Shown in pieces: positions 1,223 through 41,775 of a DNA stretch of 41,775 nt (its first letter is position 1; the number at the start of each line of letters is the position of its first letter). The notes under the pieces are model-generated. The model was not told where the DNA came from. It worked only from the letters and a program-made list of their open reading frames with translations, and made no database searches. Source of the stretch: Escherichia phage C130_2; sequence record MH363708; one strand, given 5' to 3'. The translations under genes and the position numbers were made by a program.

Positions 1223-1295
1223 TGTTAACTATTGTGAATCGGTGAAGCTGGCACCGTCAGCCCAGCTTTACACCGCTGTAAATGCTCGCGTTACA

Positions 1296-1345
1296 CCTCA
1301 TATATTAATCGGGTATCAAAACCCACGTTTAACAAAAAGTGCTAT
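1296..1345 (-). promoter_or_regulatory. Promoter-like bipartite element (inverted-repeat motif plus TATA-rich element) for gene 101-1222
   Basis: Minus strand reads ATAGCACTTTTTGTTAAAC, then about 18 nt, then TTAATATATGAGG. Member of the recurring motif family (see findings). Confidence 0.45.
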
Positions 1346-3757: not shown

Positions 3758-3806
3758 AAATAGCACTTTTTGCTAAAACAGATTAATACAGACCATATAT
3801 AGTTAA
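3758..3806 (+). promoter_or_regulatory. Promoter-like bipartite element (site A) for the plus-strand early block
   Basis: AAATAGCACTTTTTGCTAAAACA (3758-3780), 18-bp spacer, CATATATAGTT containing a TATAGT -10-like hexamer; inverted-repeat centre about 42 bp upstream of the predicted start site. Confidence 0.5.
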
Positions 3807-3836
3807 CCCATCGAAACGAACAACGAGGCAGACAAA

Positions 3837-4004
3837 ATGAACTTTCCAAAAATCACTTACACCGCCAGCCGTAGCAAAAAATTCATCACCATTGAGCACG
3901 CGCCAAAATACGGCGTAAGCACCAAAGTAACGCGCAACGTTACCGGCAAACGTGAAGCGCGTCAGATTGCAAATGAGCTGGGCGGCATCTGCTGGAACTT
4001 CTAA
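3837..4004 (+). CDS. Hypothetical small basic protein (55 aa)
   Basis: ATG at 3837 with GAGG RBS 9 nt upstream; below the track size cut-off, translated manually (MNFPKITYTASRSKKF...ICWNF). Followed by a GGCCCC-TTCG-GGGGCC hairpin. Confidence 0.4.
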   Translation: MNFPKITYTASRSKKFITIEHAPKYGVSTKVTRNVTGKREARQIANELGGICWNF

Positions 4005-4012
4005 CCAACCAC

Positions 4013-4028
4013 GGCCCCTTCGGGGGCC
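4013..4028 (+). other. GC-clamped UUCG-tetraloop hairpin within the operon
   Basis: GGCCCCTTCGGGGGCC; no U-tract follows, so it is more likely an RNA stability or processing element or a weak attenuator than a full terminator. Confidence 0.35.
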
Positions 4029-4049
4029 ATATCAACTGAGGCAAAGACC

Positions 4050-4739
4050 ATGCAAAACAAAAAAGTATTCGTTAAAGAGGATCGCTATCTGGTGATCAAG
4101 CGCGCTGACCTGGAAGCGGCAACCGCTGCGGGGCTGCTGTCAGTTGGTCAGATTGCGATCCTGAATAAGATCCTTTGCGAGTCCAGCCGGATCCGCAGCA
4201 ACCGTGGCGCACGCCCGCTGCACGGCCTGTTTGTTGAAAATGACTGGCCTGAATACGACGCCGTTTTAAAGATGATTGCAGACCGCGTGGAAGGCGTGGA
4301 CGGCGCTGATAAGCAGGGGCCGATCCTTTACTGCATCGTTGACGCTGACGGCTTGCCATTCATGCAGGAATACTGCGTTGATCTGGATGCAGCCGCATTG
4401 CAAAAAGAAGTGGACGCGATGAACGAGCAAGACGGGATCCCCCCAGGTGGTGACGGCTTCCGCGTCGTGCCCCTTGAGGTGTACACCATTTCAGGCGCGC
4501 AACAACGCTGGGCCTGGTCAACGATCTTTGATCGCTTCCTGCGCACATTCCCTGAGCAAATGAACGTGCCCAACCGCAACGCAACCACGATGATTGATGA
4601 TCTGCTGGGTGAGTACGGCGAGATCCGCGATAATGCCCAGGCGGTGATCGACGAACTCGAAGAGGCGGCGAGCCATTCACCGGACGCCCGCCCAGCGATC
4701 AACAACGCGATCAAACTTCTCCGGGGTCTGCACAAATAG
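4050..4739 (+). CDS. Hypothetical early protein (229 aa), acidic
   Basis: Long ORF with GAGG RBS; no recognisable motif. Confidence 0.6.
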   Translation: MQNKKVFVKEDRYLVIKRADLEAATAAGLLSVGQIAILNKILCESSRIRSNRGARPLHGLFVENDWPEYDAVLKMIADRVEGVDGADKQGPILYCIVDADGLPFMQEYCVDLDAAALQKEVDAMNEQDGIPPGGDGFRVVPLEVYTISGAQQRWAWSTIFDRFLRTFPEQMNVPNRNATTMIDDLLGEYGEIRDNAQAVIDELEEAASHSPDARPAINNAIKLLRGLHK

Positions 4740-4780
4740 CACTTTTTGTTAAAACGATGGGATAATTACTATATATACTT
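4736..4780 (+). promoter_or_regulatory. Promoter-like bipartite element (site B)
   Basis: ATAGCACTTTTTGTTAAAAC, 18 bp, TATATATACT (TATACT -10-like), upstream of gene 4812. Confidence 0.5.
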
Positions 4781-4811
4781 ATCCCATCACTTACGAATGA
4801 GGGCAAACAAA

Positions 4812-5042
4812 ATGGCACGTTCAACGATTCGCGTTACCAACGATCAGGGCTTCGGCGGTTACTATGGCAACCTGCGCAAGTGGGAAGGCGTGAAGGCACG
4901 CGATCTGGCATGGCGTGAAGAGTTGGGCGCACCGGAAGCGGCCCAGGATCCAGACTGGTGGATCGACGAAACCACAACGCGCGGCGAGTACAACGCCCGC
5001 ACCCGTGCCCACGCTGCCAAATGGCGTGACGATTGGGCGTAA
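4812..5042 (+). CDS. Hypothetical small protein (76 aa)
   Basis: ATG at 4812 with GAGGG RBS; followed by hairpin GGTGCCCTTCGGGGCACC (5051-5068). Confidence 0.5.
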   Translation: MARSTIRVTNDQGFGGYYGNLRKWEGVKARDLAWREELGAPEAAQDPDWWIDETTTRGEYNARTRAHAAKWRDDWA

Positions 5043-5083
5043 TCAAACGCGGTGCCCTTCGGGGCACCAATGCTGGGGGATGT

Positions 5084-5428
5084 ATGGAAAAAATCGTTTA
5101 TGTGCTCATGAAGCGCCGGAAATTCTCGCAGGTGTCGCGCAATACCGCAGTTTTCGACGCGAACGGCTGCGCCCTGATCGACAAAATGATCCTGAGCCAT
5201 GCCACGCCGAAGGGCTGGAAAATGAAGCCGGTGTGGTCTTGCCGTGGCGAGCCTACTTTCTACGCTGCCGATTCTTACATGGTGTTTGATACCATCAAGG
5301 ATGCCGCAGAACATCTGCGCAAAGAGCTTGGCGGGGCTTATGCTGCGCTGACTCTGCAAGCGAAGCTGATCGCGGAGTTGTGCGATCAGTGCGATGAAAT
5401 TTACATGAGTGCAAAGGAGCCTGATTAA
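5084..5428 (+). CDS. Hypothetical protein (114 aa)
   Basis: ATG at 5084 inside track ORF 5033-5428; RBS-like GGGGG upstream. Confidence 0.5.
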   Translation: MEKIVYVLMKRRKFSQVSRNTAVFDANGCALIDKMILSHATPKGWKMKPVWSCRGEPTFYAADSYMVFDTIKDAAEHLRKELGGAYAALTLQAKLIAELCDQCDEIYMSAKEPD

Positions 5429-5688
5429 TGGCAAAGGTCAGTCTTATTGGCAACGCGGGCACCGGCAAGAAAACTGCCGTTTATAGTGTGACGCTGGACG
5501 GGTCGCCCCGTGCCTATGTGGTGGCAGGGCGTGAAATTAAGTACATGAGCGAACGACGCGGAAAGGGCGGGCGTATGCTGCGCCGCTGGCTTCCGGTGGT
5601 TCAAACGGCATTGCGTCGCCAGATCTCGGACGCGGTGCGGGAATATCAGATCGAAGAGGTGCGAAAGAGTGAAGAGGCGCAACCCTGA
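5428..5688 (+). CDS. Hypothetical small basic protein (86 aa)
   Basis: TAATG stop-start overlap with the previous gene; AAGGAG 8 nt upstream. Confidence 0.5.
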   Translation: MAKVSLIGNAGTGKKTAVYSVTLDGSPRAYVVAGREIKYMSERRGKGGRMLRRWLPVVQTALRRQISDAVREYQIEEVRKSEEAQP

Positions 5689-5956
5689 TCCGCATTCGTA
5701 CTGGAACCGCCGCCCATACCTTTTGAACAAAAGAAAGTCGCACCCTGGCGCGGTGTTTTGCAGGGTGTCCAGCGTATGCCCTGAAATGAATAAGCGCGGG
5801 CGGTTGTTTAAGCGCTGGATCGCCGCTGGCAGGTTGTACACGATGCACGGGATCTGCCTTCTGAGCGCATCAGGCCGCGTGCCCCATCTGCGCGAAGCGA
5901 TGCAAGAAGGCCGGTTATTTCTCCGCACCGATAAGGGCGGCAAAAACTTATATTAA
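5669..5956 (+). CDS. Hypothetical basic protein (95 aa), GTG start
   Basis: Track ORF starts on GTG at 5669 and overlaps the upstream gene by 20 nt; GAGG upstream. Start uncertain (internal ATG at 5786). Confidence 0.3.
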   Translation: MKRRNPDPHSYWNRRPYLLNKRKSHPGAVFCRVSSVCPEMNKRGRLFKRWIAAGRLYTMHGICLLSASGRVPHLREAMQEGRLFLRTDKGGKNLY

Positions 5957-5974
5957 TCAGTAGGAGCAAAGAAA

Positions 5975-6673
5975 ATGCGTATCACAAAGGCAATGCAGGA
6001 AACAATTTTCGAAAACATTATTGCAGACAATCACCCGCTGCGCGTCCGTGCCGATAAGGTGCGCTGGAACGTCGCGCGCATGGTGGCAGATCTGGTGCTG
6101 GAAGCCCGCGCAAAAAATGGGTTTAAATCCGACGCGGAGATCGGCGCGTTAATTGAAGAGGTGAAGGATCTTAATAAGCGCGGCAAAGATTTTTTGAATG
6201 TCTCAAACTCGTTTAATAAATTCCGTCTGGAAGGTGAGGGGGAAGAAAAATATTATTACGATTATAACCTTTATTTCACGGTTGGCGGGCAGAAGCGCGA
6301 AGCCTCTTTCCTCGGTGAGTTGGACAAGGATCACCGTCTGCGCGCCGGTATCATAACCCCAGGCGTTGGGCATGAGGTGGCGCGGCCTTACCTGGGCATG
6401 TTCACACCAACCGGACGGATCAACGTTCCTGCGGATCATTGGGTCATGGCGCGCTTGCAGGAGTTGGAAAGCGAAGTTGCAGCCATTAACGGTGAGCACA
6501 TAACGTTAAAAAGCACCGTCTTTGCAACCCTGAATAAATTCACTACGGTTAAAAAGCTGGTGGCACACTGGCCCGAAGTGGAAAAATACATTCCGAAGGA
6601 TCAGCCGGTAACGGGCACCGGCATTGCGATCAGCGTCGCGGATCTTAATGCGATGTGCGGCATTCCAAAGTAA
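5975..6673 (+). CDS. Hypothetical protein (232 aa)
   Basis: ATG at 5975 with AGGAG RBS; followed by an intrinsic terminator. Confidence 0.6.
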   Translation: MRITKAMQETIFENIIADNHPLRVRADKVRWNVARMVADLVLEARAKNGFKSDAEIGALIEEVKDLNKRGKDFLNVSNSFNKFRLEGEGEEKYYYDYNLYFTVGGQKREASFLGELDKDHRLRAGIITPGVGHEVARPYLGMFTPTGRINVPADHWVMARLQELESEVAAINGEHITLKSTVFATLNKFTTVKKLVAHWPEVEKYIPKDQPVTGTGIAISVADLNAMCGIPK

Positions 6674-6691
6674 AAATTATGACCGTCACGA

Positions 6692-6716
6692 AACCGCCAT
6701 TTGTGGCGGTTTTTTA
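6692..6716 (+). terminator. Rho-independent terminator
   Basis: CCGCCA-TTTG-TGGCGG stem-loop followed by TTTTTTATTTT. Confidence 0.6.
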
Positions 6717-6761
6717 TTTTGTGCTACCCTCAAGCCGTGATCAACCAGTCGGATTGAGGAA

Positions 6762-7061
6762 ATGAATAAACTTTGGGCATGGTTAAAGACTCGCGGGAGT
6801 AAAGCCCGTATTGTGTTAATCGGTGGGTTGGTAGCCTTCACGGCTTACATTCACTTTTCGGCGGATCGACTGCGTGAGCGTTTAACGATCCTTTGGGGCA
6901 CTTTCACTGCGACGGCTGGCGCGCTTAGTCTTGGGGATGTGGCGATCATTGTCGGTATTCTCTGCACAATCGGATCACTCCTTATTAACTGGTATTACAA
7001 GGCGCGCGATGATAAGCGGAAAGAGGCCATTTTCCGTAAAGGCAGGATCATTGATGAATAG
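6762..7061 (+). CDS. Holin, class II / pinholin-like
   Basis: 99 aa, two hydrophobic helices, highly charged C-terminus ([16 protein letters not shown]) resembling the tail of phage 21 S pinholin; overlaps the endolysin start; GAGGA RBS. Confidence 0.6.
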
Positions 7062-7545
7062 CAAATTGTTTACAAAATTCACGGCGGCACTTGGAGGCGG
7101 GGCGCTGGCTGTCGCCTTCGCTTTGCTGTCCGGTCAAAATGGGTTAGAGGGGCGTGAGTATATCCCTTATCAAGATATTGTGGGGGTCTGGACGGTCTGC
7201 GACGGTCACACCGGCCCCGATATCATCAAGGGCAAGCGGTACACGGATCGGGAGTGTGACGCGCTCACCAAAGCCGATTTAAAACGCATCGCCAGCCAGA
7301 TCGATCCCAATATCAAAGTTAAGTTGCCGGAAACCGTTCACGCGGCGATCTATACCTTCGCCTATAACGTGGGCGCGGGTGCCTTCAACAAGTCAACCAT
7401 GCTGCGCAAAATCAACGCCGGTGACACCATCGGCGCTTGCAATGAGTTGCAACGCTGGGTTTACGCTGGCGGCAAGAAGTGGAAGGGGTTGATCAACCGC
7501 CGTGAGGTTGAAACAACCGTTTGCAAATGGAGCCTTACCAAATGA
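7054..7545 (+). CDS. SAR endolysin (T4-lysozyme / GH24 family, phage 21 R-like)
   Basis: N-terminal signal-anchor-release segment ([18 protein letters not shown]), then [25 protein letters not shown]...[12 protein letters not shown], closely resembling phage 21 R lysozyme as recalled. Confidence 0.85.
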
Positions 7546-8078
7546 CGTGGGCCGCTGTAGTTGCAGCGATCCAACGGTGGTGGAAGCCAGCCGCGCTGCT
7601 GTTGCTGCTGGGTGGATCCTTCGCCGCCGGCACGGCCTGGAATGATCGGGGCTGGCAAGCAAAATGGGCTGATCGGGATGCAAAAGAATCCTCCCAGGAA
7701 ACGAACGCGCAGACCGCAGCCCGCATGATTGAACAAGGGCGAACCATTGCCCGTGAAGAGGCTGTGAAAGATGCACAACAACAAGCGGCAAAAGCTGCTG
7801 CCACTGCTGCTGGCCTGTCTGCCACTGTTAGCAAGTTGCAGCAACAAGCCGGAAAACTCGCAACCCGCCTGGACGCCGCAAAGCACACCGCAGATCTTGC
7901 CGCTGCCGTCGCAAGCAAGACAACCGGCGCAAACGCCGCAATGCTCGCCAACATGCTCGGAAGCCTTGCAGAAGAAGCTAAATATTATGCTGGAAGATCT
8001 GACGAAAGCTATCGGGCCGGAATGACGTGTGAAAGGATTTACGATCAGGTGCGGGAGTCAAACAACAAGGGGCCATGA
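7542..8078 (+). CDS. i-spanin (Rz-like)
   Basis: ATGA overlap with the endolysin stop; N-terminal TM helix then Ala/Gln-rich coiled-coil periplasmic domain; last gene of the lysis cassette. Confidence 0.65.
7771..8025 (+). CDS. o-spanin (Rz1-like lipoprotein) embedded in the +1 frame of the i-spanin gene
   Basis: Lies entirely within 7542-8078 in another frame; signal peptide with lipobox LLASC, proline-rich mature part with Cys residues; the classic lambda/P21 nested arrangement. Confidence 0.6.
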
Positions 8079-8975: not shown

Positions 8976-9287
8976 TCATAGTTTACCTGCCTCCCTTAAG
9001 GTCTGGCGTCTGTTATGCACCTGCGCGAACGTCAGCCCCATTTCTTCGGCAATCTGTCGGCTGGTCTTGTCAGCCTTCACACCGGCGATGATCTGCCGGT
9101 CTTCCTCGGTAGTCCACCAGTGGAAAGCGCGGGTGATCGATATCTCAACCCCCAGCGCGCGTGCGCGTCCGTAAACGGATTGGCGCGGGCGTCCAATGTG
9201 CGCCACGATATCTGGCCCAGGCAGGGTGCCCGCATTGTCCAGGATGAATTGATCTTCCTTCGGTGTAAACGGCTTACCGCGTGGCAT
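8976..9287 (-). CDS. Myb/SANT-like helix-turn-helix DNA-binding protein
   Basis: ATG at 9287 with AAGGGGG RBS; WTTEEDRQII and FTPKEDQFIL motifs typical of Myb-like repeats. Confidence 0.45.
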   Translation of the reverse strand: MPRGKPFTPKEDQFILDNAGTLPGPDIVAHIGRPRQSVYGRARALGVEISITRAFHWWTTEEDRQIIAGVKADKTSRQIAEEMGLTFAQVHNRRQTLREAGKL

Positions 9288-10636: not shown

Positions 10637-10660
10637 CTGTCTGCCTCCCGTGTGGTTGAT

Positions 10661-10710
10661 GGGTTAACTATATATGGTCATTATGCCGGATGTTTAGCAA
10701 AAAGTGCTAT
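10661..10710 (-). promoter_or_regulatory. Promoter-like bipartite element (site C)
   Basis: Minus strand ATAGCACTTTTTGCTAAACA, 18 bp, CATATATAGTTAACCC; the 16-mer CATATATAGTTAACCC is identical to that at site A. Confidence 0.5.
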
Positions 10711-13781: not shown

Positions 13782-13811
13782 TGTTGGTGCCTCGTTGGTG
13801 AGTGGTGAAAC

Positions 13812-13857
13812 ATACTATATATAAAGACTTTGCAAACGCTTTAGCAATTCGTGCTAT
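13812..13857 (-). promoter_or_regulatory. Promoter-like bipartite element (site D)
   Basis: Minus strand ATAGCACGAATTGCTAAAGC, 18 bp, TATATATAGTATG, upstream of dUTPase. Confidence 0.5.
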
Positions 13858-13939: not shown

Positions 13940-14782
13940 TCAGCTTAACCACGCATTCATTGCCCCTGTGATATCCAGACCGGCGCGCACCCTGCCGCAA
14001 TCCTGGTATAAATAGATCTCGTCCTGATCCAGCGCCACCAATCGCACTTCACGATCACCCCTGTAGCGTGCTGAAACCTCGCGGCAGTTCAGCGGGGTAA
14101 AGCCGATCCATATCTCGCAACCCTTCGCGGGGCCGTCATGCTCTGCCATTGCCACGGCACAAAGGGGATCGCTGATCAGGTAGATTGGCCCGTCTTGCAG
14201 CCCCTTTGCTGGGTGGATCACTGCCACTGCGCCCCAGGTGCGAAGACCTGCCGCAAAGTGTACTGATCGATCAGGGTCTACCCGCGCCAGATTGCAGAAT
14301 TGAAGCGACGCGCCCGACTCGGCAACCTTCCTGCATGGCAGATAGGCTGATCCCTTTCTCCCCCCAGCACGCGCCATGCTCACAACTTTATCGTGCGGGA
14401 TCTCCGCGCTGTTCCTGGTGGTCTTGCTCTTCGATATGGCTTTAGCCTCTCTGGCGACGCTCTCGCGCCGTTCTGGCGTCATGCCCCCCAGCCAATCACC
14501 CAAATCATTGATCGCCTCGTTAAACGGCTGCATACGCGCTTTCATGAACCAATAAAGCCCATCATGCGAGCCGCCGCAGTCGCCGGAACAATACGCGAAA
14601 CCTTCCTCGCGCTTTTGCGGTTTTTTGTGGCCCCAGCGGAAGCGATCAACGCCGCCGCAGATGGGGCAAGATTGGTGGTTGCCGTCAAAGTTTTTGTGCT
14701 GCCAGCCGCACAACTCGATCAACGCCTTTTCCCACTTATCCCGCATTCCTCGCAAAACTGTTTGCTTGTCATGGATTGCCAT
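13940..14782 (-). CDS. Putative DNA primase (zinc-ribbon plus TOPRIM-like)
   Basis: 280 aa; CPICGG...YCSGDCG zinc-binding motif and an acidic LVALDQDE segment; divergent from the helicase gene. Confidence 0.45.
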   Translation of the reverse strand: MAIHDKQTVLRGMRDKWEKALIELCGWQHKNFDGNHQSCPICGGVDRFRWGHKKPQKREEGFAYCSGDCGGSHDGLYWFMKARMQPFNEAINDLGDWLGGMTPERRESVAREAKAISKSKTTRNSAEIPHDKVVSMARAGGRKGSAYLPCRKVAESGASLQFCNLARVDPDRSVHFAAGLRTWGAVAVIHPAKGLQDGPIYLISDPLCAVAMAEHDGPAKGCEIWIGFTPLNCREVSARYRGDREVRLVALDQDEIYLYQDCGRVRAGLDITGAMNAWLS

Positions 14783-14804
14783 TTTTGCCGGTGTCCGTTA
14801 TATT
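14776..14804 (+). promoter_or_regulatory. Sigma70-like promoter for the helicase / recombination operon
   Basis: TTGCCA, 17 bp, TATATT, about 40 nt upstream of ATG 14846 (RBS GGAG). Confidence 0.4.
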
Positions 14805-14845
14805 CATGAATCAGTCAGGTAGAAGAATAACGGAGCAAAAGACAA

Positions 14846-16903
14846 ATGGCAACCGCTGACACGTTAGAAAGCACCTTCGCAGAAAGGTTGATGGAAACGA
14901 TAGAAGACCGGATCGCCCGCACGCCGATTGAAGATCTGATCCGGCAGTTTGGCGATCTGCCGCTGGATCCTTACCCCTATCAGTGGGCCGCTTATGACGC
15001 GGTGGCGCAGTGCATCCGAAAATACCCAGGGCCGGTGATCGTTGAAGCGGCAGTGAGCGCGGGCAAAACGATCATGATCTCCATGCTGGCGCGCCGCATC
15101 ATGCAGTTGCCGTGGGATGATGAAAACCCAGCGAAAAAGCACCGCGCTTGTGTGCTGTCTCGCCAGGCTGAGATCATCGATCAGGATGCGCAGGAATTGT
15201 GGAATTTTCACGTAAACAACTCCATTTTCTGCGCTGGCCTGGGCAACAAAAAATCAACCCATTATCCCATCGTGTGCGGCAGTGAAGGCACGATGGTTAA
15301 CAGTCTGTTTGACAAGCTGGCAGACTTCGCCCCGCTCTTCCTGATCATTGACGAATGCCACCACGTCAACATTGACGATCTGATCGAATCCGAAGAAAGG
15401 ATGGTGCCCGACTACCTCAAAGACGAAAACGGCGCACTTGTTCTGGAAGACGGCGAGCCTGTCCAGATTGGCGAGCACAAAGGCGAGAATTACGAGGAAA
15501 TGATCGCCGCAAAGCGCAACGCTTACACGATCATAATCAGGACTTTGCAGGAGCGGTGCCTTAAGGTTCACGGGTGCCGGTTGCGCGTGATCGGTTACAC
15601 CGGCACCCCTTACCGTGGGGTTGATTCCATCGTCAATGAGGATTACGAAACGCCAGGATTTTGGCGCAAGACGGTGATCCGCATCACGACAAATTACCTG
15701 GTAAAAGTCGGTTCAGTTGTGCCCACTTACTTTGGCGTGTCGTCGCTGGGTTATCAGTTGGATCAGTTCGCCAGCTTCACTGAGTTTGGGGCGAAGGATT
15801 TTAGCAACAACGAAATGATCGCCATGCAGCGGCAGATCCTGAAAGATAAAAAGCTGACCTGGAAGATCATGCAAGAAGTGGTGGAACTCACCAAAGAGCG
15901 CAACGGGGTTTTAGTCACCTGCGCTGGTGTGGCCCACTGCAAAGAGGCCGCAGCGGCCCTGCCGGACGGCATAAGCTATGCGATCATCACGGAAGACACC
16001 GGCCCGAAAAAGCGAATGGAGATCATCGAAGACGCGAAGGCCGGAAAGATAAAATTCATCTTCCAGGTTAACGCCCTTACAACGGGCGTGAATGTGCCCC
16101 TGTGGGATACTTCCGTTATCCTGCGCCGTATTGGGTCACTCACCCTGTTGGTGCAACTGCTGGGCCGTGGGATGCGTATTTTAAAGGATTGGATGATTGA
16201 AGCCGGATTCAAGAAGAGCGATCACCTCGTCCTGGACTATTCGGGCACTATGGCTGCAATGGGCGGGCTGTATGAGGATCCGATCCTTGAAGATTACGTG
16301 TACACCGTGGACAAGGTGAAAGAGGATTGGAAGGAATGCAAATACGGGCACAAAAACGGCAAGCACGCGCGCCGCTGCCGCCACATTCACCCCAACGGCG
16401 AGCGCTGCGATGATTTCTTTGTTTATAAGCTCTGCGAAGACGTCAAAGACCGCAGCACGGGCCGCATCTTGCAGAAGGGCTGCGGGGCCAAAAATGACAC
16501 CGTGGCGCGCCAGTGCCGCTGCTGTGGCAACCTCCTGATCGATCCAAACAAAAACCTATCCGGCGAGCATTACACGGATAAAGATTATTGCGACGTGATC
16601 AGCTTTACGCCGCAGGTTGGCAACGGTGGATCCTTCGCTATTGAGTATCAACTCATGAAGGATGGGATCCAGTTTAAGGCGTGGGAAATTCACTGGCCCA
16701 ACTCCAAAAACCCTGGGGCGAAACAGCTATGGAACCAGTTTTTAAAAGAGCATGTTTTCATGCCGGAGCACCGCGCCACGTTGAAGGCGTGCAAATCTGC
16801 CGAAGCCGTGTTGGCTAACGTATCGTTGATCCTCCCCCCAAAGCGGGTGACGCATCGTAAAATGGGAAGCGGCAAAGATAACGTTTACAAAAAGGTATTT
16901 TGA
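14846..16903 (+). CDS. SF2 DEAD/DEAH-box family helicase with C-terminal zinc-ribbon
   Basis: Walker A AAVSAGKT, Walker B / DEAH-like LIIDECHH, C-terminal Cys clusters (CRHIHPNGERC, CRCCG). Confidence 0.8.
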   Translation: MATADTLESTFAERLMETIEDRIARTPIEDLIRQFGDLPLDPYPYQWAAYDAVAQCIRKYPGPVIVEAAVSAGKTIMISMLARRIMQLPWDDENPAKKHRACVLSRQAEIIDQDAQELWNFHVNNSIFCAGLGNKKSTHYPIVCGSEGTMVNSLFDKLADFAPLFLIIDECHHVNIDDLIESEERMVPDYLKDENGALVLEDGEPVQIGEHKGENYEEMIAAKRNAYTIIIRTLQERCLKVHGCRLRVIGYTGTPYRGVDSIVNEDYETPGFWRKTVIRITTNYLVKVGSVVPTYFGVSSLGYQLDQFASFTEFGAKDFSNNEMIAMQRQILKDKKLTWKIMQEVVELTKERNGVLVTCAGVAHCKEAAAALPDGISYAIITEDTGPKKRMEIIEDAKAGKIKFIFQVNALTTGVNVPLWDTSVILRRIGSLTLLVQLLGRGMRILKDWMIEAGFKKSDHLVLDYSGTMAAMGGLYEDPILEDYVYTVDKVKEDWKECKYGHKNGKHARRCRHIHPNGERCDDFFVYKLCEDVKDRSTGRILQKGCGAKNDTVARQCRCCGNLLIDPNKNLSGEHYTDKDYCDVISFTPQVGNGGSFAIEYQLMKDGIQFKAWEIHWPNSKNPGAKQLWNQFLKEHVFMPEHRATLKACKSAEAVLANVSLILPPKRVTHRKMGSGKDNVYKKVF

Positions 16904-19663: not shown

Positions 19664-20098
19664 ATGAAAATTTGCACAACCTGCAAGGAATCAAAGCCGC
19701 TGACGGAATACCACGCCAACCGGCGAAGCAAAGACGGCAAATCATGCACCTGTAAGGGCTGCAAACGCGATAAAGATCGCAGCCGGTACGAATCCAACGC
19801 CGATGCAGTAAAAGCCCGTGTGCGGGCTTATCAGGCCGCAGAAGGCAAGGCCGTTGCGAATGGCTGCAAAGCTGAGTACAAAAAGCGCCACCCGAAGAAG
19901 GCGCGGGCACATCAACTGGTTAGAAATGCTCTTCGGCGCGGTGAATTAACGCGCCAGCCGTGCGAAGCGTGCGGCACGTCCAACCATGTGATCGCCCATC
20001 ATGACGATTACGATCAGCCGCTGGCGGTGCGCTGGCTGTGCGAAGATCATCACAAAGAATGGCACCGCATCAACGGAGAGGCAAAAAACCCATGTTAA
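19664..20098 (+). CDS. HNH endonuclease
   Basis: CxxC...CEACG...HHDDYDQPL...WLCEDHH arrangement typical of HNH nucleases. Confidence 0.6.
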   Translation: MKICTTCKESKPLTEYHANRRSKDGKSCTCKGCKRDKDRSRYESNADAVKARVRAYQAAEGKAVANGCKAEYKKRHPKKARAHQLVRNALRRGELTRQPCEACGTSNHVIAHHDDYDQPLAVRWLCEDHHKEWHRINGEAKNPC

Positions 20099-20478
20099 AC
20101 ACTCTGAAAGATAAAAACGTTTATTTGGCTGGCCCAATGACGGGGATCCCTGATTACAACCGCCCCGCGTTTATGGTGGCGCATTTCGCGCTGCGCCCGC
20201 ATGTGCTCGGCCTGTTGAATCCATCATTCCTGCCGGTAACGCTGCGTGATCATGCCGCCTATATGGCGATCTCCCTGCCGATGGTTGACGCGGCAGACGC
20301 GGTGGTATTCCTCCCAGGCTGGAAGGCTTCGAAAGGTTGCGCGCTGGAATTGGCCCGCGCCAATGAGCGTGGGATCCCGTGCTTCGAATACCTCAACCCC
20401 AGCAAAAAAGGCCGCTTGCCAAAACTGGTGCCTGTGGGCGATGATAGCGGGGTGAATACACGGGGGAATGAATCATGA
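20092..20478 (+). CDS. Nucleoside 2-deoxyribosyltransferase-like (DUF4406-like) protein
   Basis: ATG at 20092 overlapping the HNH stop; VYLAGPMTG...VVFLPGW...ELARA pattern of a Rossmann-like fold. Confidence 0.45.
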   Translation: MLNTLKDKNVYLAGPMTGIPDYNRPAFMVAHFALRPHVLGLLNPSFLPVTLRDHAAYMAISLPMVDAADAVVFLPGWKASKGCALELARANERGIPCFEYLNPSKKGRLPKLVPVGDDSGVNTRGNES

Positions 20479-20690
20479 AAATTGCAATCCTGATCGCTGA
20501 CGTGCGAAAGGCGAAAGGAAAGAGCCAGCGGCAGATCTCGGAAGCAACGGGGATCGCTGAGCGCCAGTTAAGCCGCTATGAAAACCAGCACGAAACGCCG
20601 TCTTTGGCAACGCTGGTTAAGGTGGCAGGGGCGCTGGGCGTCAACTTCTCTGATCTGGTTGAAGTGTCGGACATGGTTGATCCGGCTTAA
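20475..20690 (+). CDS. XRE-family helix-turn-helix transcriptional regulator
   Basis: 71 aa; QRQISEATGIAERQLSRYE HTH signature; overlapping start. Confidence 0.65.
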   Translation: MKIAILIADVRKAKGKSQRQISEATGIAERQLSRYENQHETPSLATLVKVAGALGVNFSDLVEVSDMVDPA

Positions 20691-22983: not shown

Positions 22984-23035
22984 TGTTGGTGCCTCGTTGT
23001 TGTATTCAGGCTTTAGTGTATAGACGTTCAGGAAA

Positions 23036-23062: not shown

Positions 23063-26000
23063 TTACTGCTGCCCGTAGATCTGGATCCGCTGCTCACCGT
23101 CAGGGCCGGTGATTAACGGCGGGCGCTCGTCGGTCTGCTCACCGTCGCTGGCTGCTGCCGCTGCCGGAGTACCGGCAAGCCATGCGATGAAACCAGCGCG
23201 GGCGATTTGACGTTGATCAGCCTCGGCAAGCGTGGCGATAAAGTCTTGGGCCGCTTTGCTGTTCGCAAGGCGTCGCTCTGTGGTGTTGATGATCGTCCGG
23301 CTTGGGCCGCTGGATCCATCGTCTGCCACCATGCGAGCAACCGCCCTGATCGCCTGGGTCATATCATCACCGGCGAGGAAACGATCCGCAACCTGCGAAG
23401 CCGCAGCACGGTTGGCAACTGCCCCGCGCGCAGCCTCAACGGCAACGTTACCGAAGCCAGGAGAAACCGCAGCCGCCGCCGATTGCGTCAACATGGCACC
23501 GATCCGCGTGTTAAAGACTTTATCCAAAAAGTCATTGCTGTTGTTGAAGCGGCGCGAAAAGTTGTTGATCTTGCCGGTGGCGGCGAAAGATTCACCCTCT
23601 TTGCGGGCTGCGTTGGCGACTTTCGCCAGGTTGTCAACAACTGCACGCTGATCCGCTGGCAGGTGCTGCATGAGCATTCCCAATTTGCCTGAGTTGCGCG
23701 CCTCGGTGTACCACTTCGCAAAGCCTGGAATGTTCAGGCGTTCGCCGGTGGTGCCGCTCATGCGGAATGCCATTGCAAGCGCGTTGGTCGCAACCTGCGG
23801 GCGCATAGCCGCTGGCGTTGATCGCATGAGAGTTTGAAAACCCTTTGGATCTGCGCCTTTGGTGCCCAGCGCTTTAACAGCCTGATAAATCTTGCTGCTT
23901 GCGGAATTATCAAGCTCTTTGCCCAGCACGGCTTGCTGTTTGGCCTGTAGCGCCACGCGCTGACGGGTCAGATCCTTTGCCGCATCCCACGCATCTTTCA
24001 CGCCAAACTGTGCCGCCACATCCCCTTGATCCTCGGTTAAACGGCTGTACATGGCGTTAAGGCGCGCAACGTTCGCATCCTTGTATGGGCCTTGACGCTT
24101 GTTAATCGCCGCGCCAACGTCTTTGCGCACATCGTCCAGAAGGGCGAAAGTCGGCCCGCCTCGGCTGTCGCTGGTTGGGCTTAGGCGTTCCAATACGCTA
24201 CGCTCAATCGGATCCAGGTTGGCTGCGCCGCCACGGTTACTGGCTTTCTGGTTGAGGTAATCAACCGTCTTTTCTGGATTTACCGGAGTGTGATCCGGGA
24301 TCGTGCGCAATGATTTGTTATAGGCCGCAGTTTCAGCGGTGCCGATATCATCGATCAGTCGGCTTGTCTCTGCCTTGAATGCCTGATCGAAGGTGAGATC
24401 CTCAACCGGCCCGCCTAAGTCTTCCAGCACCTTATCTGCGCGGGCAGTCAACGCCTGATACTGGCGGCTCTGCTTCTCACCCAAAAGGGATCCGGTTTCG
24501 CTGCGCAGGTTGCCGATCACGTCGCGGGTTGACTTGTCGCGCATAAACAGGCCAGGCGTCAGATCGTCAGTCACGCCCAATTCATCTGCGGCGCGCACAA
24601 CCTCTGGATCGATATCGCCACGGCGCGCAAGGTTGATCGCCGCGTTCGGTGCGCTGGAAGTCTCGCCGGTTGCCGCGTCGGTTACTGTGGTGCGCGGTGC
24701 GCTTCCGCGTGCTGCTGCGGTTGCATCCTGTCGCACGGCGTCAATAGCGGCTTGTTGCGTCGCTTCTGCGCCACCAGTACCAGTGCCAGTGCCCGCGCCC
24801 GTTGCGTCCTCTGCTGGGCGGATCAGATCACGGATCACCGGTGCTGCACGCCGTGCGGCTGCGCCAACGGCATTTACTGCCGCCTCGCCCACTGGCCCTG
24901 CTGCGATGCCGATCAGCGCGTCTTGCTGGTCGCCTTCGCTGGCTGCAAGGGCACCTGGCACGGCACGGGTTGCCGGTGCTGCGATCCGTTGCTCAAGGAA
25001 TCCCCCCAAACGGGAAAGGATGCTCGCAACCTCTGGCGAAGCTGTGCCCGCCAATTCTGCCATTTCGCGTGCGATACCCTGAATTTTCGGGGCTGCTGAC
25101 ATAGCCGCGCCACCAGGGATCGGGGTCAGACCGGCGATCAACTTCGCGCCAAACTGAGCATAAGGATCTTCGGGATCATCAAGCCCCATGCCGATCCGGC
25201 CTTCGGGGATCGGGGTATAGGTGCCGTCACCCAGCCCAACTTGCTTGCCCAGCCATGCACCGGCAGACTGTGCCGCGTTCGCTGCATAGATCGGGATGTT
25301 GAGCACGTCTTCTGCTGCGCGCACTAAACCTTTGCCCGCCTGAGTCAGATCGCGCCCAATCGTTGTGGGTGCCTGGTAATCCTGCAACTGCTCTGCGCTG
25401 TAGTAGTCGCCGCTGGTGTCTGGTTGCGGCTGTGCGGCGCTCTGCTGCGTCGTGGCGGCTTGCGGCTGTGGTTGGGTGTCCATAGTCGCTTGCGGCTGTT
25501 CTGGCGCTGCTGGCTGCGTTTCCTGCGGTGCTCGCGGGGTCAGTTCGCCAAACTGGCTGGCAAATTTGTTGGTTGATCCGGTGTCGCCGGCACGGGCGCT
25601 GGTTGCCCGCTGTGGCGCGTCGGAGTCTGTGACCGCACCCAAAGCGCGATCAATCGGGTTAACGCCGCCCGTCCACTGGTCAAAGCGTGAATCGACGTAT
25701 TGACGCCCTTCCGGCCCTGGGGTGTACTCGCCTTTTAACATGGCGTCGGTGTTGCCTGGGCCGTCATGGTACGCTTGCAGGGCCAGCCCCCAATCGCCGT
25801 AGCGGTCATACATCTGGCGCAGGTATTTTGCGCCCGCTTCGGCCTGTAGCGCAGGATTGTTGCGCACCTCTGCTGGGTCATAGCCCATATCGCGCAGCGT
25901 GCCTGGCATAACCTGAGTGCCACCAATGGCACCTTTGCTGGACGTTGCGCCAGTGTCGCCGCCAGACTCTTTGCCAACGAGCGCAGACATAAGCCCTTCT

Positions 26001-26128
26001 GGAATGCCCTGTGATGCGCCCGCCGCTTCCCAATGATTGCCGCCCTGCTGCTGCGGGGCGGTCTGCTGCGGTTGTGCCTGGGCGTTGCCGCCCAGGTTCC
26101 CGAAAGTTGCCGCAAAGTTGAAAGCCAT
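23063..26128 (-). CDS. Ejection / internal virion protein with N-terminal lytic transglycosylase (SLT) domain
   Basis: 1021 aa; N-terminal GKESGG...GGTQVMPGT...AYHDGPGN SLT signature; long Ala/Gly/Thr-rich low-complexity remainder; in the position of P22 gp16. Confidence 0.7.
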   Translation of the reverse strand: MAFNFAATFGNLGGNAQAQPQQTAPQQQGGNHWEAAGASQGIPEGLMSALVGKESGGDTGATSSKGAIGGTQVMPGTLRDMGYDPAEVRNNPALQAEAGAKYLRQMYDRYGDWGLALQAYHDGPGNTDAMLKGEYTPGPEGRQYVDSRFDQWTGGVNPIDRALGAVTDSDAPQRATSARAGDTGSTNKFASQFGELTPRAPQETQPAAPEQPQATMDTQPQPQAATTQQSAAQPQPDTSGDYYSAEQLQDYQAPTTIGRDLTQAGKGLVRAAEDVLNIPIYAANAAQSAGAWLGKQVGLGDGTYTPIPEGRIGMGLDDPEDPYAQFGAKLIAGLTPIPGGAAMSAAPKIQGIAREMAELAGTASPEVASILSRLGGFLEQRIAAPATRAVPGALAASEGDQQDALIGIAAGPVGEAAVNAVGAAARRAAPVIRDLIRPAEDATGAGTGTGTGGAEATQQAAIDAVRQDATAAARGSAPRTTVTDAATGETSSAPNAAINLARRGDIDPEVVRAADELGVTDDLTPGLFMRDKSTRDVIGNLRSETGSLLGEKQSRQYQALTARADKVLEDLGGPVEDLTFDQAFKAETSRLIDDIGTAETAAYNKSLRTIPDHTPVNPEKTVDYLNQKASNRGGAANLDPIERSVLERLSPTSDSRGGPTFALLDDVRKDVGAAINKRQGPYKDANVARLNAMYSRLTEDQGDVAAQFGVKDAWDAAKDLTRQRVALQAKQQAVLGKELDNSASSKIYQAVKALGTKGADPKGFQTLMRSTPAAMRPQVATNALAMAFRMSGTTGERLNIPGFAKWYTEARNSGKLGMLMQHLPADQRAVVDNLAKVANAARKEGESFAATGKINNFSRRFNNSNDFLDKVFNTRIGAMLTQSAAAAVSPGFGNVAVEAARGAVANRAAASQVADRFLAGDDMTQAIRAVARMVADDGSSGPSRTIINTTERRLANSKAAQDFIATLAEADQRQIARAGFIAWLAGTPAAAAASDGEQTDERPPLITGPDGEQRIQIYGQQ

Positions 26129-34256: not shown

Positions 34257-34730
34257 TTAGAATGGAATATCAGGATCAAAATCGGCCTTTGGTGCTGCCG
34301 GTACGATCTCCGCGTCCTGCACGTCTTCTGCGCGGCGCGGGTTAACTTCGCGGGCATTGTCTGCCGCTGCCACAAAATCACCCTCCAGCGGGCCTTTGTA
34401 GGTCAGCGCACGAATGCTGGCGATATCGGCAAGGAATTTGGTTTCCTGCACGGTAAAATCAGCGCGCAACTTCTGCAAGCCAGCCTCCATGATCGGCAGA
34501 CTGATCGCCGCTTGCTCTTCGGCGCTCGGCATATCGTAATCAATCGCGCACTCAAACGTTTTTAACAGCACATAGGCTGCGCTTTCGCCACCCTTGCGGA
34601 TATGCTCTTCAACGCTCCAGATCGCGGAGTAGTCGAAGGATTCAACCGATACGGATCCGCGTTTTGGCCCGCCGTTTTTGCCCTCGGCAACGCAAAGGCA
34701 CACGAACAAAGTTTTATTGATAACTGGCAT
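34257..34730 (-). CDS. Protein ending in an SSB-like acidic tip (…ADFDPDIPF), function unknown
   Basis: ATG at 34730 with AGGG RBS; last 8 residues DFDPDIPF match 7 of 8 the SSB tip DFDDDIPF encoded at 19096-19623; the first ~35 residues weakly resemble the first beta-hairpin of SSB. Confidence 0.5.
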   Translation of the reverse strand: MPVINKTLFVCLCVAEGKNGGPKRGSVSVESFDYSAIWSVEEHIRKGGESAAYVLLKTFECAIDYDMPSAEEQAAISLPIMEAGLQKLRADFTVQETKFLADIASIRALTYKGPLEGDFVAAADNAREVNPRRAEDVQDAEIVPAAPKADFDPDIPF

Positions 34731-34774
34731 ATTCTTAACCCTCATGAATTAGTGAAGTGTACGGGCAAAGAATA

Positions 34775-34813
34775 GCCCGCCGAAGCGGGCTTGTCTTTAG
34801 CAAAAAGTGCTAT
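34775..34813 (-). promoter_or_regulatory. Inverted-repeat motif copy (site E) plus UUCG hairpin at the portal / insert junction
   Basis: Minus strand ATAGCACTTTTTGCTAAAG overlapping the portal stop codon, followed by GCCCGC-TTCG-GCGGGC; no TATATAG element here. Confidence 0.4.
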
Positions 34814-37098: not shown

Positions 37099-37143
37099 AT
37101 AGCACAAATTGCTAAAACATTTCACGGATTAATGATTATAGTA
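37099..37143 (+). promoter_or_regulatory. Promoter-like bipartite element (site G) driving a plus-strand ORF inside the late region
   Basis: ATAGCACAAATTGCTAAAACA, 18-bp spacer, then TGATTATAGTA (contains the TATAGT hexamer). Confidence 0.45.
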
Positions 37144-37176
37144 AACGCACATTCACTGATTAATGAGGCAAGAAAA

Positions 37177-39568: not shown

Positions 39569-40124
39569 GCTCGATCTCTCCGCGTTTCGCTGCTTCTGCC
39601 TCTGCCTGGCGGCGTTCGATCTCGTCCAGACGTTCAAGGATCCCGCTGATTTCCTGCACCTCGGCACCCTTCTTGAAGATATCGATCAGGGCGTGCGCGG
39701 CATCAATCGGGATCTCACCCTTCGCCACTGCCACCATGATCGCATCAATGCGCTGGTTTGGTGTCCAGGTCGGATCAAAGTCAAATTCGAAGTGCGGCAT
39801 GGTTGGGCGCTGATACGGGATCAGGCGGGCCAAAATGTCACGGTACATGGAAGGATCTTTCCAGGCCAACTGCAAGCCGCGCTGAATGAAAAGCTCTTCT
39901 GTGAGCGTCACCTCTTCCATCTGGCCTTCGGCGTTCAGTTGCTTAACCTTGACCGTTTGCAGGGCTTGCAATAGCAGGGTGCGGAATTGTGGCCCGCGCT
40001 TCTGGTTGCGTGGGCTTTTCGGTGGCGGGTTATCCTCGCCAAACTTCTTGCCCTCGCCACGGCCTTTGCCTGGGCCTTGCTGTGGGCCATCGTCGATCAG
40101 GGGGTCTTTGTCGTGGTCGATCAT
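39531..40124 (-). CDS. Hypothetical protein (197 aa); alternative small-terminase candidate
   Basis: Basic Gly/Pro-rich N-terminus, acidic C-terminus; weak RBS; overlaps the downstream gene by 38 nt. Confidence 0.4.
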   Translation of the reverse strand: MIDHDKDPLIDDGPQQGPGKGRGEGKKFGEDNPPPKSPRNQKRGPQFRTLLLQALQTVKVKQLNAEGQMEEVTLTEELFIQRGLQLAWKDPSMYRDILARLIPYQRPTMPHFEFDFDPTWTPNQRIDAIMVAVAKGEIPIDAAHALIDIFKKGAEVQEISGILERLDEIERRQAEAEAAKRGEIEHGTDTDTTTEAE

Positions 40125-41139: not shown

Positions 41140-41496
41140 TTAACGCCCCTGTGCTGCGTTGCCAACGCTTCTGACGGCTTCCGCATAGCTGCGTTTGGCG
41201 ATTGCCTCGGCCTCTTTGCGGGAGTACCCACGGCGCATAAGTGACGCCGTACCTTTGGCGATCAGACGCGCCTTTTTCTCTTTGCGTGTCTCGCCCTCTT
41301 TGCGGTCTGGCACGTCAGGCGGTGTGCCCATCATGGCACGCTGCATGGCTGCGCGTGGCTTCACAATACCGGCGTTGATCGCCTCCTGCCGGATGTTATC
41401 GGCGCGCATCTTCTGGATCGGCTCTGGTATCACTTCGGCTTTTTGTTTCGAACTGATCACCATGTTAACCAATGCGCTGATAATCCCTCGTTTCAT
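41140..41496 (-). CDS. Hypothetical basic protein (118 aa), first gene after the terminator hairpins
   Basis: ATG at 41496 preceded by TGAGG 9 nt upstream; the track ORF extends further but this is the first ATG with an RBS. The window begins at the reverse complement of its first two codons (ATGAAA). Confidence 0.5.
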   Translation of the reverse strand: MKRGIISALVNMVISSKQKAEVIPEPIQKMRADNIRQEAINAGIVKPRAAMQRAMMGTPPDVPDRKEGETRKEKKARLIAKGTASLMRRGYSRKEAEAIAKRSYAEAVRSVGNAAQGR

Positions 41497-41775
41497 CGTC
41501 TTTGCCTCATTGTTTCGTGAATGTGTGGTGAGCGTACAACAAAGGGGCCGCAGCCGCAAGCCCCTTGATATCCTCCCAGCGAGGCTGGGCTTAAATTGCC
41601 CTGTCGCTGCTCTTCGCCAGGTGTCCACCTTTGCCGATCCAGGCGCTGGCGCGCTGGTATTCGCTGGCGATCAACTCGTCGGTAACATACAGCCCGCCCC
41701 GATGATATGCCGCGTTAAACTCCGGCGATTCGTTGTAACCACGGCTCATAGCGTCTGCTATGGCTTCCAGCGCCT
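41491..41775. repeat. Terminal exact repeat, right copy (identical to 1-285)
   Basis: Same 285 bp as the window start; duplicates the 3' end of the 101-1222 gene, its terminator hairpins and the first two codons of the 41140-41496 gene. Confidence 0.9.

Follow-up and report, generated by a model that had tools for sequence, protein, structure and literature searches.

A repeated promoter element in Escherichia phage C130_2 and its resemblance to the marbox of enterobacterial MarA/SoxS/Rob regulators

Introduction

This study deals with a short promoter-like element that recurs in the genome of Escherichia phage C130_2 (sequence record MH363708), the whole of which, 41,775 nucleotides, was analysed and is referred to here as the window. 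One copy lies at positions 3758-3806, and it raises the question of what kind of promoter the element marks and which protein reads it. An original prediction, made from the nucleotide sequence, had described an inverted repeat near -42 together with a -10 hexamer at several transcription-unit starts, and had proposed a regulon under a dimeric activator of class II, encoded by the phage or by its host. With 41.8 kb and 55% G+C, the window represents a complete phage genome, and its gene order is syntenic with those of the Escherichia phages Skarpretter and IME_EC2. The three are podophages in which P22-like structural genes are combined with a T1-like replication module (helicase, primase, RecE, Erf, Dam). 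The closest record is OR754315.1, labelled “Stutzerimonas phage STP9” and flagged UNVERIFIED_ORG, with 93-95% identity. As set out below, the seven elements of the window are probably sigma70-dependent class II marbox promoters, which would be activated by a MarA/SoxS/Rob-type protein of the host.

The repeated element and its promoter architecture

The pattern TAGCACNNNNNKYTA matches the window seven times, at 3761(+), 4737(+), 37100(+), 10709(-), 13856(-), 1344(-) and 34812(-), where 0.10 matches are expected, and the number of seven was reached in none of 100 shuffled sequences. Written as an oriented 20-mer, the element reads ATAGCAC-NNN-TTG(C/T)TAAA-NN in all seven copies. When these sites are aligned with the six sites of Skarpretter, ATAGCAC, TTG and TAAA are invariant, as are the A and the final T of the -10 hexamer, and CA stands at the likely start. 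The -10 hexamer has the form TAnnnT and lies 18 bp past the 20-bp box at six of the seven sites and 19 bp past it at the site on the portal stop codon; its sequence is TATAGT four times and TATACT, TAATAT and TATTCT once each. The -35 is poor or absent, the hexamer 17 bp 5' of the -10 being AAAACA-like. All seven boxes face a gene, and the distance from the first base of the box to the start codon is 68-83 nt at six sites and about 125-140 nt at the site at 1345.

The architecture described in the original prediction was thus recovered at all seven places where it had been located, against an expectation of 0.05-0.1, and its account of a good sigma70 -10 with a poor -35 is borne out, with TAnnnT at every site. 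Three details had to be corrected. The copy on the portal stop codon, described as lacking the TATA part, carries TATTCT 19 bp past the box, where its ortholog in Skarpretter shows TATAGT; the -10 at the 1345 site is TAATAT at 18 bp and not TATAGT or TATACT; and the 16-mer CATATATAGTTAACCC, said to be shared with the 37099 site, occurs at 3794-3809(+) and 10661-10676(-) and not there.

Match to the marbox consensus and asymmetry of the box

The published consensus of the box bound by the bacterial stress and antibiotic-resistance regulators MarA, SoxS and Rob is AYNGCACNNWNNRYYAAAYN (PMC2064960), and a form derived from chromatin immunoprecipitation (ChIP) is gcannwwntgnnaaa (PMC12052159). Scanning the window with AYNGCACNNWNNRYYAAA (PMC2064960) gave seven matches against 0.05 expected, which are exactly the seven sites, and with GCANNWWNTGNNAAA (PMC12052159) eight matches against 0.57 expected, namely the seven sites and one extra site in the Dam gene. 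Over consensus positions 1-18, none of the seven sites shows a mismatch. The right half of the element, TTGCTAAA, is the same as in the marbox of marRAB, ATGCCACGTTTTGCTAAATC. A loose marbox consensus is degenerate, with 17,730 matches at up to two mismatches in E. coli in one study, so that the weight of the argument lies on the zero-mismatch matches at all sites and on the geometry of the promoters.

The inverted repeat noted in the original prediction is real; however, it is limited to TAGCA/TGCTA, 5 bp per arm, and two of the seven copies (TTGTTA) deviate from it. Asymmetry is seen in the invariant flanks, with C7 opposite T11 and A1 opposite A17, in addition to A18, and positions 16-18 read AAA. 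A change from C to T at position 14 occurs without compensation at position 4 at two of the seven window sites and at seven of the 15 sites of phage T1. The two-fold symmetric conservation expected of a dimer site is therefore found neither in the window nor in T1. [quoted passage not shown] What stands of the proposed class II activator is the upstream element at the class II position; the dimer does not agree with the asymmetric flanks, the uncompensated changes and the coupling of orientation to position described below.

Promoter geometry

In class II marbox promoters the box is in forward orientation, overlaps the -35 and is centred near -41.5; in class I promoters a reversed box lies upstream of a real -35. 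All seven boxes of the window are forward, with GCAC distal and TAAA proximal to the start, and thus have the orientation and position of class II. The micF promoter of E. coli MG1655, a class II promoter of MarA, SoxS, Rob and RamA that was read directly from its sequence, consists of ACAGCACTGAATGTCAAAAC, 18 bp, TAGAAT and 7 nt to +1. The phage promoters share with it the forward 20-bp marbox in place of the -35 with its centre near -41, the 18-bp spacing to the -10, and the 7 bp between GCAC and (C/T)AAA. They differ in that their boxes hardly vary and come nearer to the consensus than the box of the host does, in that binding is in their case predicted from sequence, and in their number, 6-15 per genome of 40-50 kb, on transcription units of lytic phages.

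The class I counterpart is marRAB of MG1655, where ATGCCACGTTTTGCTAAATC is reversed and lies 16 bp upstream of TTGACT-17-TATTAT. The same orientation, with a gap of 15-16 bp to the -35, recurs at the left end of T1-like genomes (in T1 at 101-164), where a reversed box is followed, after a constant gap of 15 bp, by a genuine -35 and, with a spacer of 17 bp, by a -10. While the hexamers of these left-end promoters vary (TTGATT/TATGAT, TTGTCA/TAGAAT, TTGACC/TACAAT), the geometry is constant. In addition to this arrangement, the TTGCTAAA half is common to the phage and mar boxes, which differ in the CCAC of the mar box as against the GCAC of the phages. Around the window's own boxes no convincing class I arrangement was found. 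The box of promoter A, taken in reverse as a class I site for the promoter at 3727-3699 (-), was rejected, as it lies 32 bp from the -35 of that promoter and out of phase.

Orientation is tied to position, with forward boxes where the -35 is overlapped and, in T1-like phages, reversed boxes upstream of a real -35. Judged from the DNA, this pattern is a specific signature of monomeric MarA/SoxS/Rob activators and would be unexpected for a symmetric dimer site. CRP and FNR class II promoters also have the activator site near -41.5 and overlapping the -35, but their sites are true dyads for dimers, in contrast to the asymmetric phage site. The middle promoters of T4 likewise form a class of phage promoters with an upstream box instead of a -35 and with only the -10 read by sigma70; they differ in the MotA box at -30 with its different sequence and in the appropriation of sigma by AsiA, whereas here the box lies at about -40 and the activator is proposed to be supplied by the host.

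Distribution of the element

Motif scanning of the genome and of related phages, the check proposed with the original prediction, recovered the element in the window, T1, Skarpretter, IME_EC2 and STP9. Strict marbox sites number seven each in the window and in IME_EC2, six each in Skarpretter and in STP9, and 15 in T1, of which 11 have a -10 at 17-19 bp; there are none in lambda. A scan of IMG/VR with the exact pattern TAGCACNNNTTGCTAAA returned at least 120 stretches, many with multiple matches on contigs of 46-52 kb, and at least 196 unique core sites, with TAnnnT at exactly 18 bp in at least 102, at 19 bp in at least 17 and at 17 bp in at least seven. Two loci with the element are presumably those of phages Rtp (46,219 bp) and TLS (49,902 bp). 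Position 1, which lay outside the search pattern, is A in 120 of the 128 sites with a -10 at 17-20 bp among the matches listed; among the 102 listed sites spaced by 18 bp, position 10 is W in every one, and an A stands 7 nt past the -10 in 81. In these matches positions 1 and 10, neither of which was searched for, follow the marbox consensus.

Outside these genomes, the module is present in the early region of T4-type phages of the RB16/Lw1 kind and on E. coli plasmids of about 110 kb, in the form ATAGCACTTTTTGCTAAATG, 19 bp, TATAGT (e.g. NZ_CP062913.1, 110 kb, 1501-1545). When the box was compared by BLAST with 5,426 E. coli genomes, it was found in 631 and only in accessory DNA, and 214 places in these genomes are on plasmids. 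The relatives that bear the motif infect Escherichia, Klebsiella, Cronobacter, Citrobacter and Enterobacter. An assembly of the sulfate reducer Nitratidesulfovibrio liaohensis contains four full modules on one contig (NZ_VSMK01000220.1, 46.7 kb), which is probably a contaminant from a T1-like phage. Within T1, the class II boxes cluster in the arms with small genes and in the region of DNA metabolism and not in the structural region (8.4-29.6 kb). At 15062-15089 of T1, upstream of the gene for the major head protein, a reversed marbox lies within the spacer of TTGACG-16-TATTAT, where an activator would be expected to repress.

Candidate regulators and alternative explanations

The search for a phage-encoded reader of the marbox type gave negative results throughout. 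No homologues of MarA, SoxS or Rob were found by tblastn of the window and related phage DNA; a hidden Markov model built from the MG1655 proteins found no AraC-type protein in 15,050 six-frame open reading frames (ORFs) of the window and related phages (best E 0.6); and 30 window proteins scanned with Pfam showed neither an AraC nor an HTH_18 domain, the remaining ones being structural or replication homologues. A phage-encoded AraC-type activator was rejected on the results of these searches. The window and T1 have in common only endolysin, Dam, primase, helicase, VRR-NUC, RecE, Erf and one small protein, none of which is a regulator, and no regulator shared by the window group and T1 was found. 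The same 15 invariant bases therefore go together with different candidate regulators, none of them found in common, so that the simplest reader is a host factor, and binding to the marbox is known for the enterobacterial proteins MarA, SoxS, Rob and RamA. The host option left open in the original prediction is accordingly favoured, while its phage candidates are weak and absent from T1.

These candidates, an XRE protein (20475-20690) and a Myb-like protein (8976-9287), are the DNA-binding proteins that Pfam finds among the 30, and we regard it as unlikely that one of them binds TAGCA-N5-TGCTA as a dimer at -42 and activates transcription. The half-site centres of the 5-bp repeat are indeed 10 bp apart, both proteins are kept in Skarpretter and IME_EC2, XRE is a clear HTH_3 protein (E 2e-14), and its gene ends a presumably early replication operon with a consensus-like sigma70 promoter (14776-14804), which would make a coherent early-to-late cascade. 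However, T1 carries the identical element 15 times and has no homologue of either protein, and the two-repeat Myb-like protein, a Myb/HTH_23 hit, remains below the Pfam family threshold (18.9 against 24.4 bits). T1 in turn encodes the Cro-like regulator ST23 (Pfam P22_Cro), which phmmer detects in T1-like loci with E 1e-102 to 6e-8, but the window returns nothing up to an E of 10, and the best E in STP9, Skarpretter and IME_EC2 is at least 0.7. ST23 was rejected as the common regulator of the element, being absent from the window group. With different candidate regulators in the groups of phages, non-homologous proteins would need to have converged on the same 15 invariant bases, and the short symmetry, the uncompensated changes, the asymmetric invariant flanks and the orientation tied to position count against a dimer as well. 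The Rtp genome paper of Wietzorrek and colleagues from 2006 reportedly described conserved inverted repeats, 10 in number, that lie upstream of Rtp genes, and connected them with a putative regulator, Rtp52, which we take to be the counterpart of ST23. These repeats are probably the same element, as Rtp loci carry TAGCAC-N3-TTGCTAAA upstream of genes; the reported assignment is to a phage regulator, whereas the window has the element but no homologue of Rtp52 or ST23.

Some other shared factor, either a small phage protein that escaped detection, analogous to MotA or AsiA of T4, or a different host protein with a marbox-like site, is also improbable. Conservation in the phages is far tighter than in host marboxes, with about 15 invariant positions including 3 and 11, many small window proteins have no Pfam match, and TTTGCTAAA is loosely like the T4 MotA box TTTGCTTTA; yet no regulator-like family common to the two groups emerged, the centre of the box is near -40.5 and not at -30 as in MotA-dependent promoters, and both the full marbox match and the presence of class I and class II geometries would have to be coincidence. 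A MotA-dependent middle promoter was rejected because the box differs in place and sequence and because the 30 Pfam-scanned proteins contain neither a MotA nor an AsiA domain. It is very unlikely that the promoters work without any activator, with RNA polymerase using the -10 alone and the box being a displaced -35 (TTGCTA) or an UP-like element. TTGCTA agrees with TTGACA at four of six positions, and extended -10 promoters can function without a -35: TGn precedes the -10 in 51 of the 128 listed IMG/VR promoters, T1-like phages often have an extended -10, and G stands at -14 in 76% of the 102 listed 18-bp-spaced sites. A correctly placed TGn is nevertheless found at none of the seven window sites, and the invariant ATAGCAC would be left unexplained, the box being unlike the A/T-tract consensus of UP elements. 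TTGCTA lies 22-23 bp from the -10, a spacing outside the tolerance of sigma70, and was rejected as a displaced -35 on this ground. Almost certainly the sites are not sigma54 promoters, even though TAGCAC-N3-TTGCT resembles TGGCAC-N5-TTGCW in both the -24 and the -12 element: the distance from G to G is 9 bp instead of 11, i.e. 2 bp short, and AG replaces the invariant GG at all sites, grounds on which this reading was rejected. The conserved -10 and start are found about 30 bp downstream of where a sigma54 start would fall, and no enhancer-binding protein was found, the sole AAA protein matching AAA_25.

Proposed mechanism and points against it

The explanation that we consider probable is activation of the seven class II marbox promoters by a host protein. 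A monomeric activator of the MarA/SoxS/Rob (RamA) family with two HTH motifs, supplied by the enterobacterial host, would bind the box, which at about -50 to -31 would stand in for the -35 hexamer. GCAC would be read by one HTH and TAAA by the other, one helical turn further on. The bound activator would touch region 4 of sigma70 as well as alpha's C-terminal domain, as seen in the class II complexes of SoxS and RamA resolved by cryo-electron microscopy. RNA polymerase would then need only the -10 (TATAGT and variants, 18-19 bp past the box), and transcription would begin at the conserved A some 7 nt further on. With boxes so close to the consensus, the small amounts of activator in unstressed cells may suffice for activation. 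Rob, which is constitutive, is the one member of the family known to be abundant in such cells. That MarA, SoxS or Rob binds and activates, and which of them does so, we infer from the sequence.

Several observations weigh against this explanation. Consensus position 19 (Y) is satisfied at only two of the seven window sites, and positions 3 (A) and 11 (T), which are free in the consensus, are invariant in the phages, so that a reader more selective than MarA, SoxS or Rob is conceivable. In 100,044 bacterial species genomes the exact phage-type module turned up 30 times, scattered over 298 Gb, a number near chance level; the module is thus absent from bacterial chromosomes and no host promoter serves as a direct precedent for the exact sequence. 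A screen of the Keio collection with the T1-like phage LL5 returned TolC, lipopolysaccharide, PpiB and SecB and not rob, marA or soxS. Taken singly, none of these three genes thus appears to be essential for the phage, which fits a three-way redundancy and, provided that LL5 has the element, speaks against strict dependence on a single activator. Finally, the nearest record to the window bears Stutzerimonas as its host label. OR754315.1 was deposited as a phage of Stutzerimonas stutzeri, and this label is doubtful because every other relative infects Enterobacteriaceae.

Promoters of the window and neighbouring features

The coordinates of the seven promoters are collected in Table 1.

Table 1. 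Marbox-like promoters of the window with the genes they face; coordinates on the minus strand are given in the direction of transcription except for the full extent.
Promoter	Extent	Strand	Marbox	Spacer (bp)	-10	Predicted start	Target
A	3760..3810	+	3760-3779 ATAGCACTTTTTGCTAAAAC	18	TATAGT 3798-3803	A3810	genes 3837-4739 (+)
B	4736..4786	+	4736-4755 ATAGCACTTTTTGTTAAAAC	18	TATACT 4774-4779	A4786	4812-8078 (+), lysis genes included (endolysin and Rz homology)
D	10660..10710	-	10710-10691	18	TATAGT 10672-10667	A10660	10636-8091 (-)
E	13807..13857	-	13857-13838 ATAGCACGAATTGCTAAAGC	18	TATAGT 13819-13814		operon 13781-10735 (-): dUTPase, Dam, RusA-like protein, methylase
F	1295..1345	-	1345-1326 ATAGCACTTTTTGTTAAACG	18	TAATAT 1307-1302		gene 1207-101 (-)
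G	37099..37149	+	37099-37118 ATAGCACAAATTGCTAAAAC	18	TATAGT 37137-37142	A37149	37177-37380 (+), 67-aa hydrophobic protein between portal and terminase genes
H	34762..34813	-	34813-34794	19	TATTCT 34774-34769		structural genes from about 34730-34745 (-)

The marbox of promoter B overlaps the stop codon of the gene upstream and that of promoter H the portal stop codon, and promoter D follows directly after a terminator (10736-10719). Across the circular junction, promoter F probably also serves the operon extending as far as the terminase gene. The spacer of promoter H holds the portal terminator hairpin AGCCCGC-ttcg-GCGGGCT (34792-34775, minus), the T-tract of which overlaps the -10. Promoter spacers with a terminator hairpin also occur at 24191 of Skarpretter and at 39976 and 41956 of T1, whose record annotates terminators there. 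These arrangements of marbox, hairpin and -10 are compact composites of terminator and promoter.

A different structure surrounds the -10 of promoter B, which is bracketed by a 10-bp inverted repeat, GATGGGATAA (4756-4765) and TTATCCCATC (4779-4788). Inverted repeats of variable sequence flank the -10 in T1-like marbox promoters too, for instance GGGGTA...TATAGT-TACCCC, and among the IMG/VR matches listed a perfect repeat of at least 6 bp surrounds the -10 in 46 of 102 T1-like marbox promoters, against about 3-4 in shuffled and partner-swapped controls. As the arms covary, a structure formed by DNA or RNA seems more likely than a site read by a protein. In promoter G, the -10 ATTATAGT reads as ACTATAAT on the opposite strand, which contains a perfect TATAAT (37135-37140, minus) facing the portal gene and kept in Skarpretter. 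This hexamer may be part of the promoter for the portal gene; the marbox would then be situated immediately downstream of its start, and a bound activator could interfere with portal transcription.

Promoters of the ordinary kind, similar to the sigma70 consensus and without a marbox, are present as well. They occur divergently between the primase and helicase genes (14776-14852), with TTGCCA-17-TATATT (+) and TTGCCA-17-TATTCT (-), and upstream of the gene for the AAA_25 protein, with TTGATT-17-CATAAT at 3727-3699 (-), so that dependence on the box would not be genome-wide. In T1 the counterpart of the helicase operon has a marbox promoter instead (36444). The additional site found in the Dam gene, GCAGCACGAAATGCAAAACA at 12921-12878 (-), is marbox-like with TATGCT 18 bp downstream; it fits the ChIP-derived pattern and has two mismatches to the 18-nt consensus, and it could be an internal promoter or a match by chance, given the 0.57 expected.

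Further observations concern genes of the window. An identical 16-mer, TGTTGGTGCCTCGTTG, is located at 13782-13797 and 22984-22999 and reads CAACGAGGCACCAACA-ATG on the coding strand. Its copies precede the starts of the dUTPase gene, the first of operon E, and of the gene for a 1021-aa homologue of a DNA-transfer protein (23063-26128), and it is a duplicated leader and ribosome-binding region. The gene at 5975-6673 encodes a protein with an Nmad5 (nucleotide-modification-associated) domain and the gene at 20092-20478 a DUF4406 or nucleoside 2-deoxyribosyltransferase-like protein; together with two methyltransferases and the dUTPase, they hint at DNA modification. Bases 41491-41775 are identical to 1-285, which leaves a unique genome length of 41,490 bp, and this duplication of 285 bases is either an overlap from circular assembly or a terminal repeat. 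In the second copy, the ORF at 41591-41749 duplicates the 3' end of the gene at 101-1207.

Significance

The marbox promoter type is well known; that lytic phages employ it as their principal class of promoter seems not to have been described. In T1-like genome papers the annotated promoters are generic sigma70 ones, and the GenBank records of T1 and Rtp contain no annotated promoters. In a full-text literature search, the scope of which did not extend to the T1 and Rtp genome papers, no paper was found that links phage promoters to the marbox, Rob, MarA or SoxS, and the marbox identity of the Rtp repeats apparently went unnoticed when they were described. T1 is a classical coliphage, and many T1-like phages are used in phage therapy.

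It is quite possible, though we hold this broader proposal with some reserve, that the T1 family, the podophages around Skarpretter, IME_EC2 and the window, the RB16-like T-even phages and the plasmids of about 110 kb run much of their transcription via MarA, SoxS, Rob or RamA of the host with near-optimal marboxes. In that case, phage expression would be tied to the stress and multidrug-resistance state of the host, as set by bile salts, salicylate, oxidants or mar and ram mutations, and phage development would be coupled to the regulators of acrAB-tolC efflux and porin expression. Replicating phage DNA with many high-affinity boxes could in turn titrate these regulators off the efflux and porin genes. 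The promoters would be compact, strong and activator-dependent parts for synthetic biology. Such a dependence would also have a bearing on phage-antibiotic synergy, on infection in the bile-rich gut and on the permissiveness of clinical strains that overexpress mar or ramA to phages of this kind.

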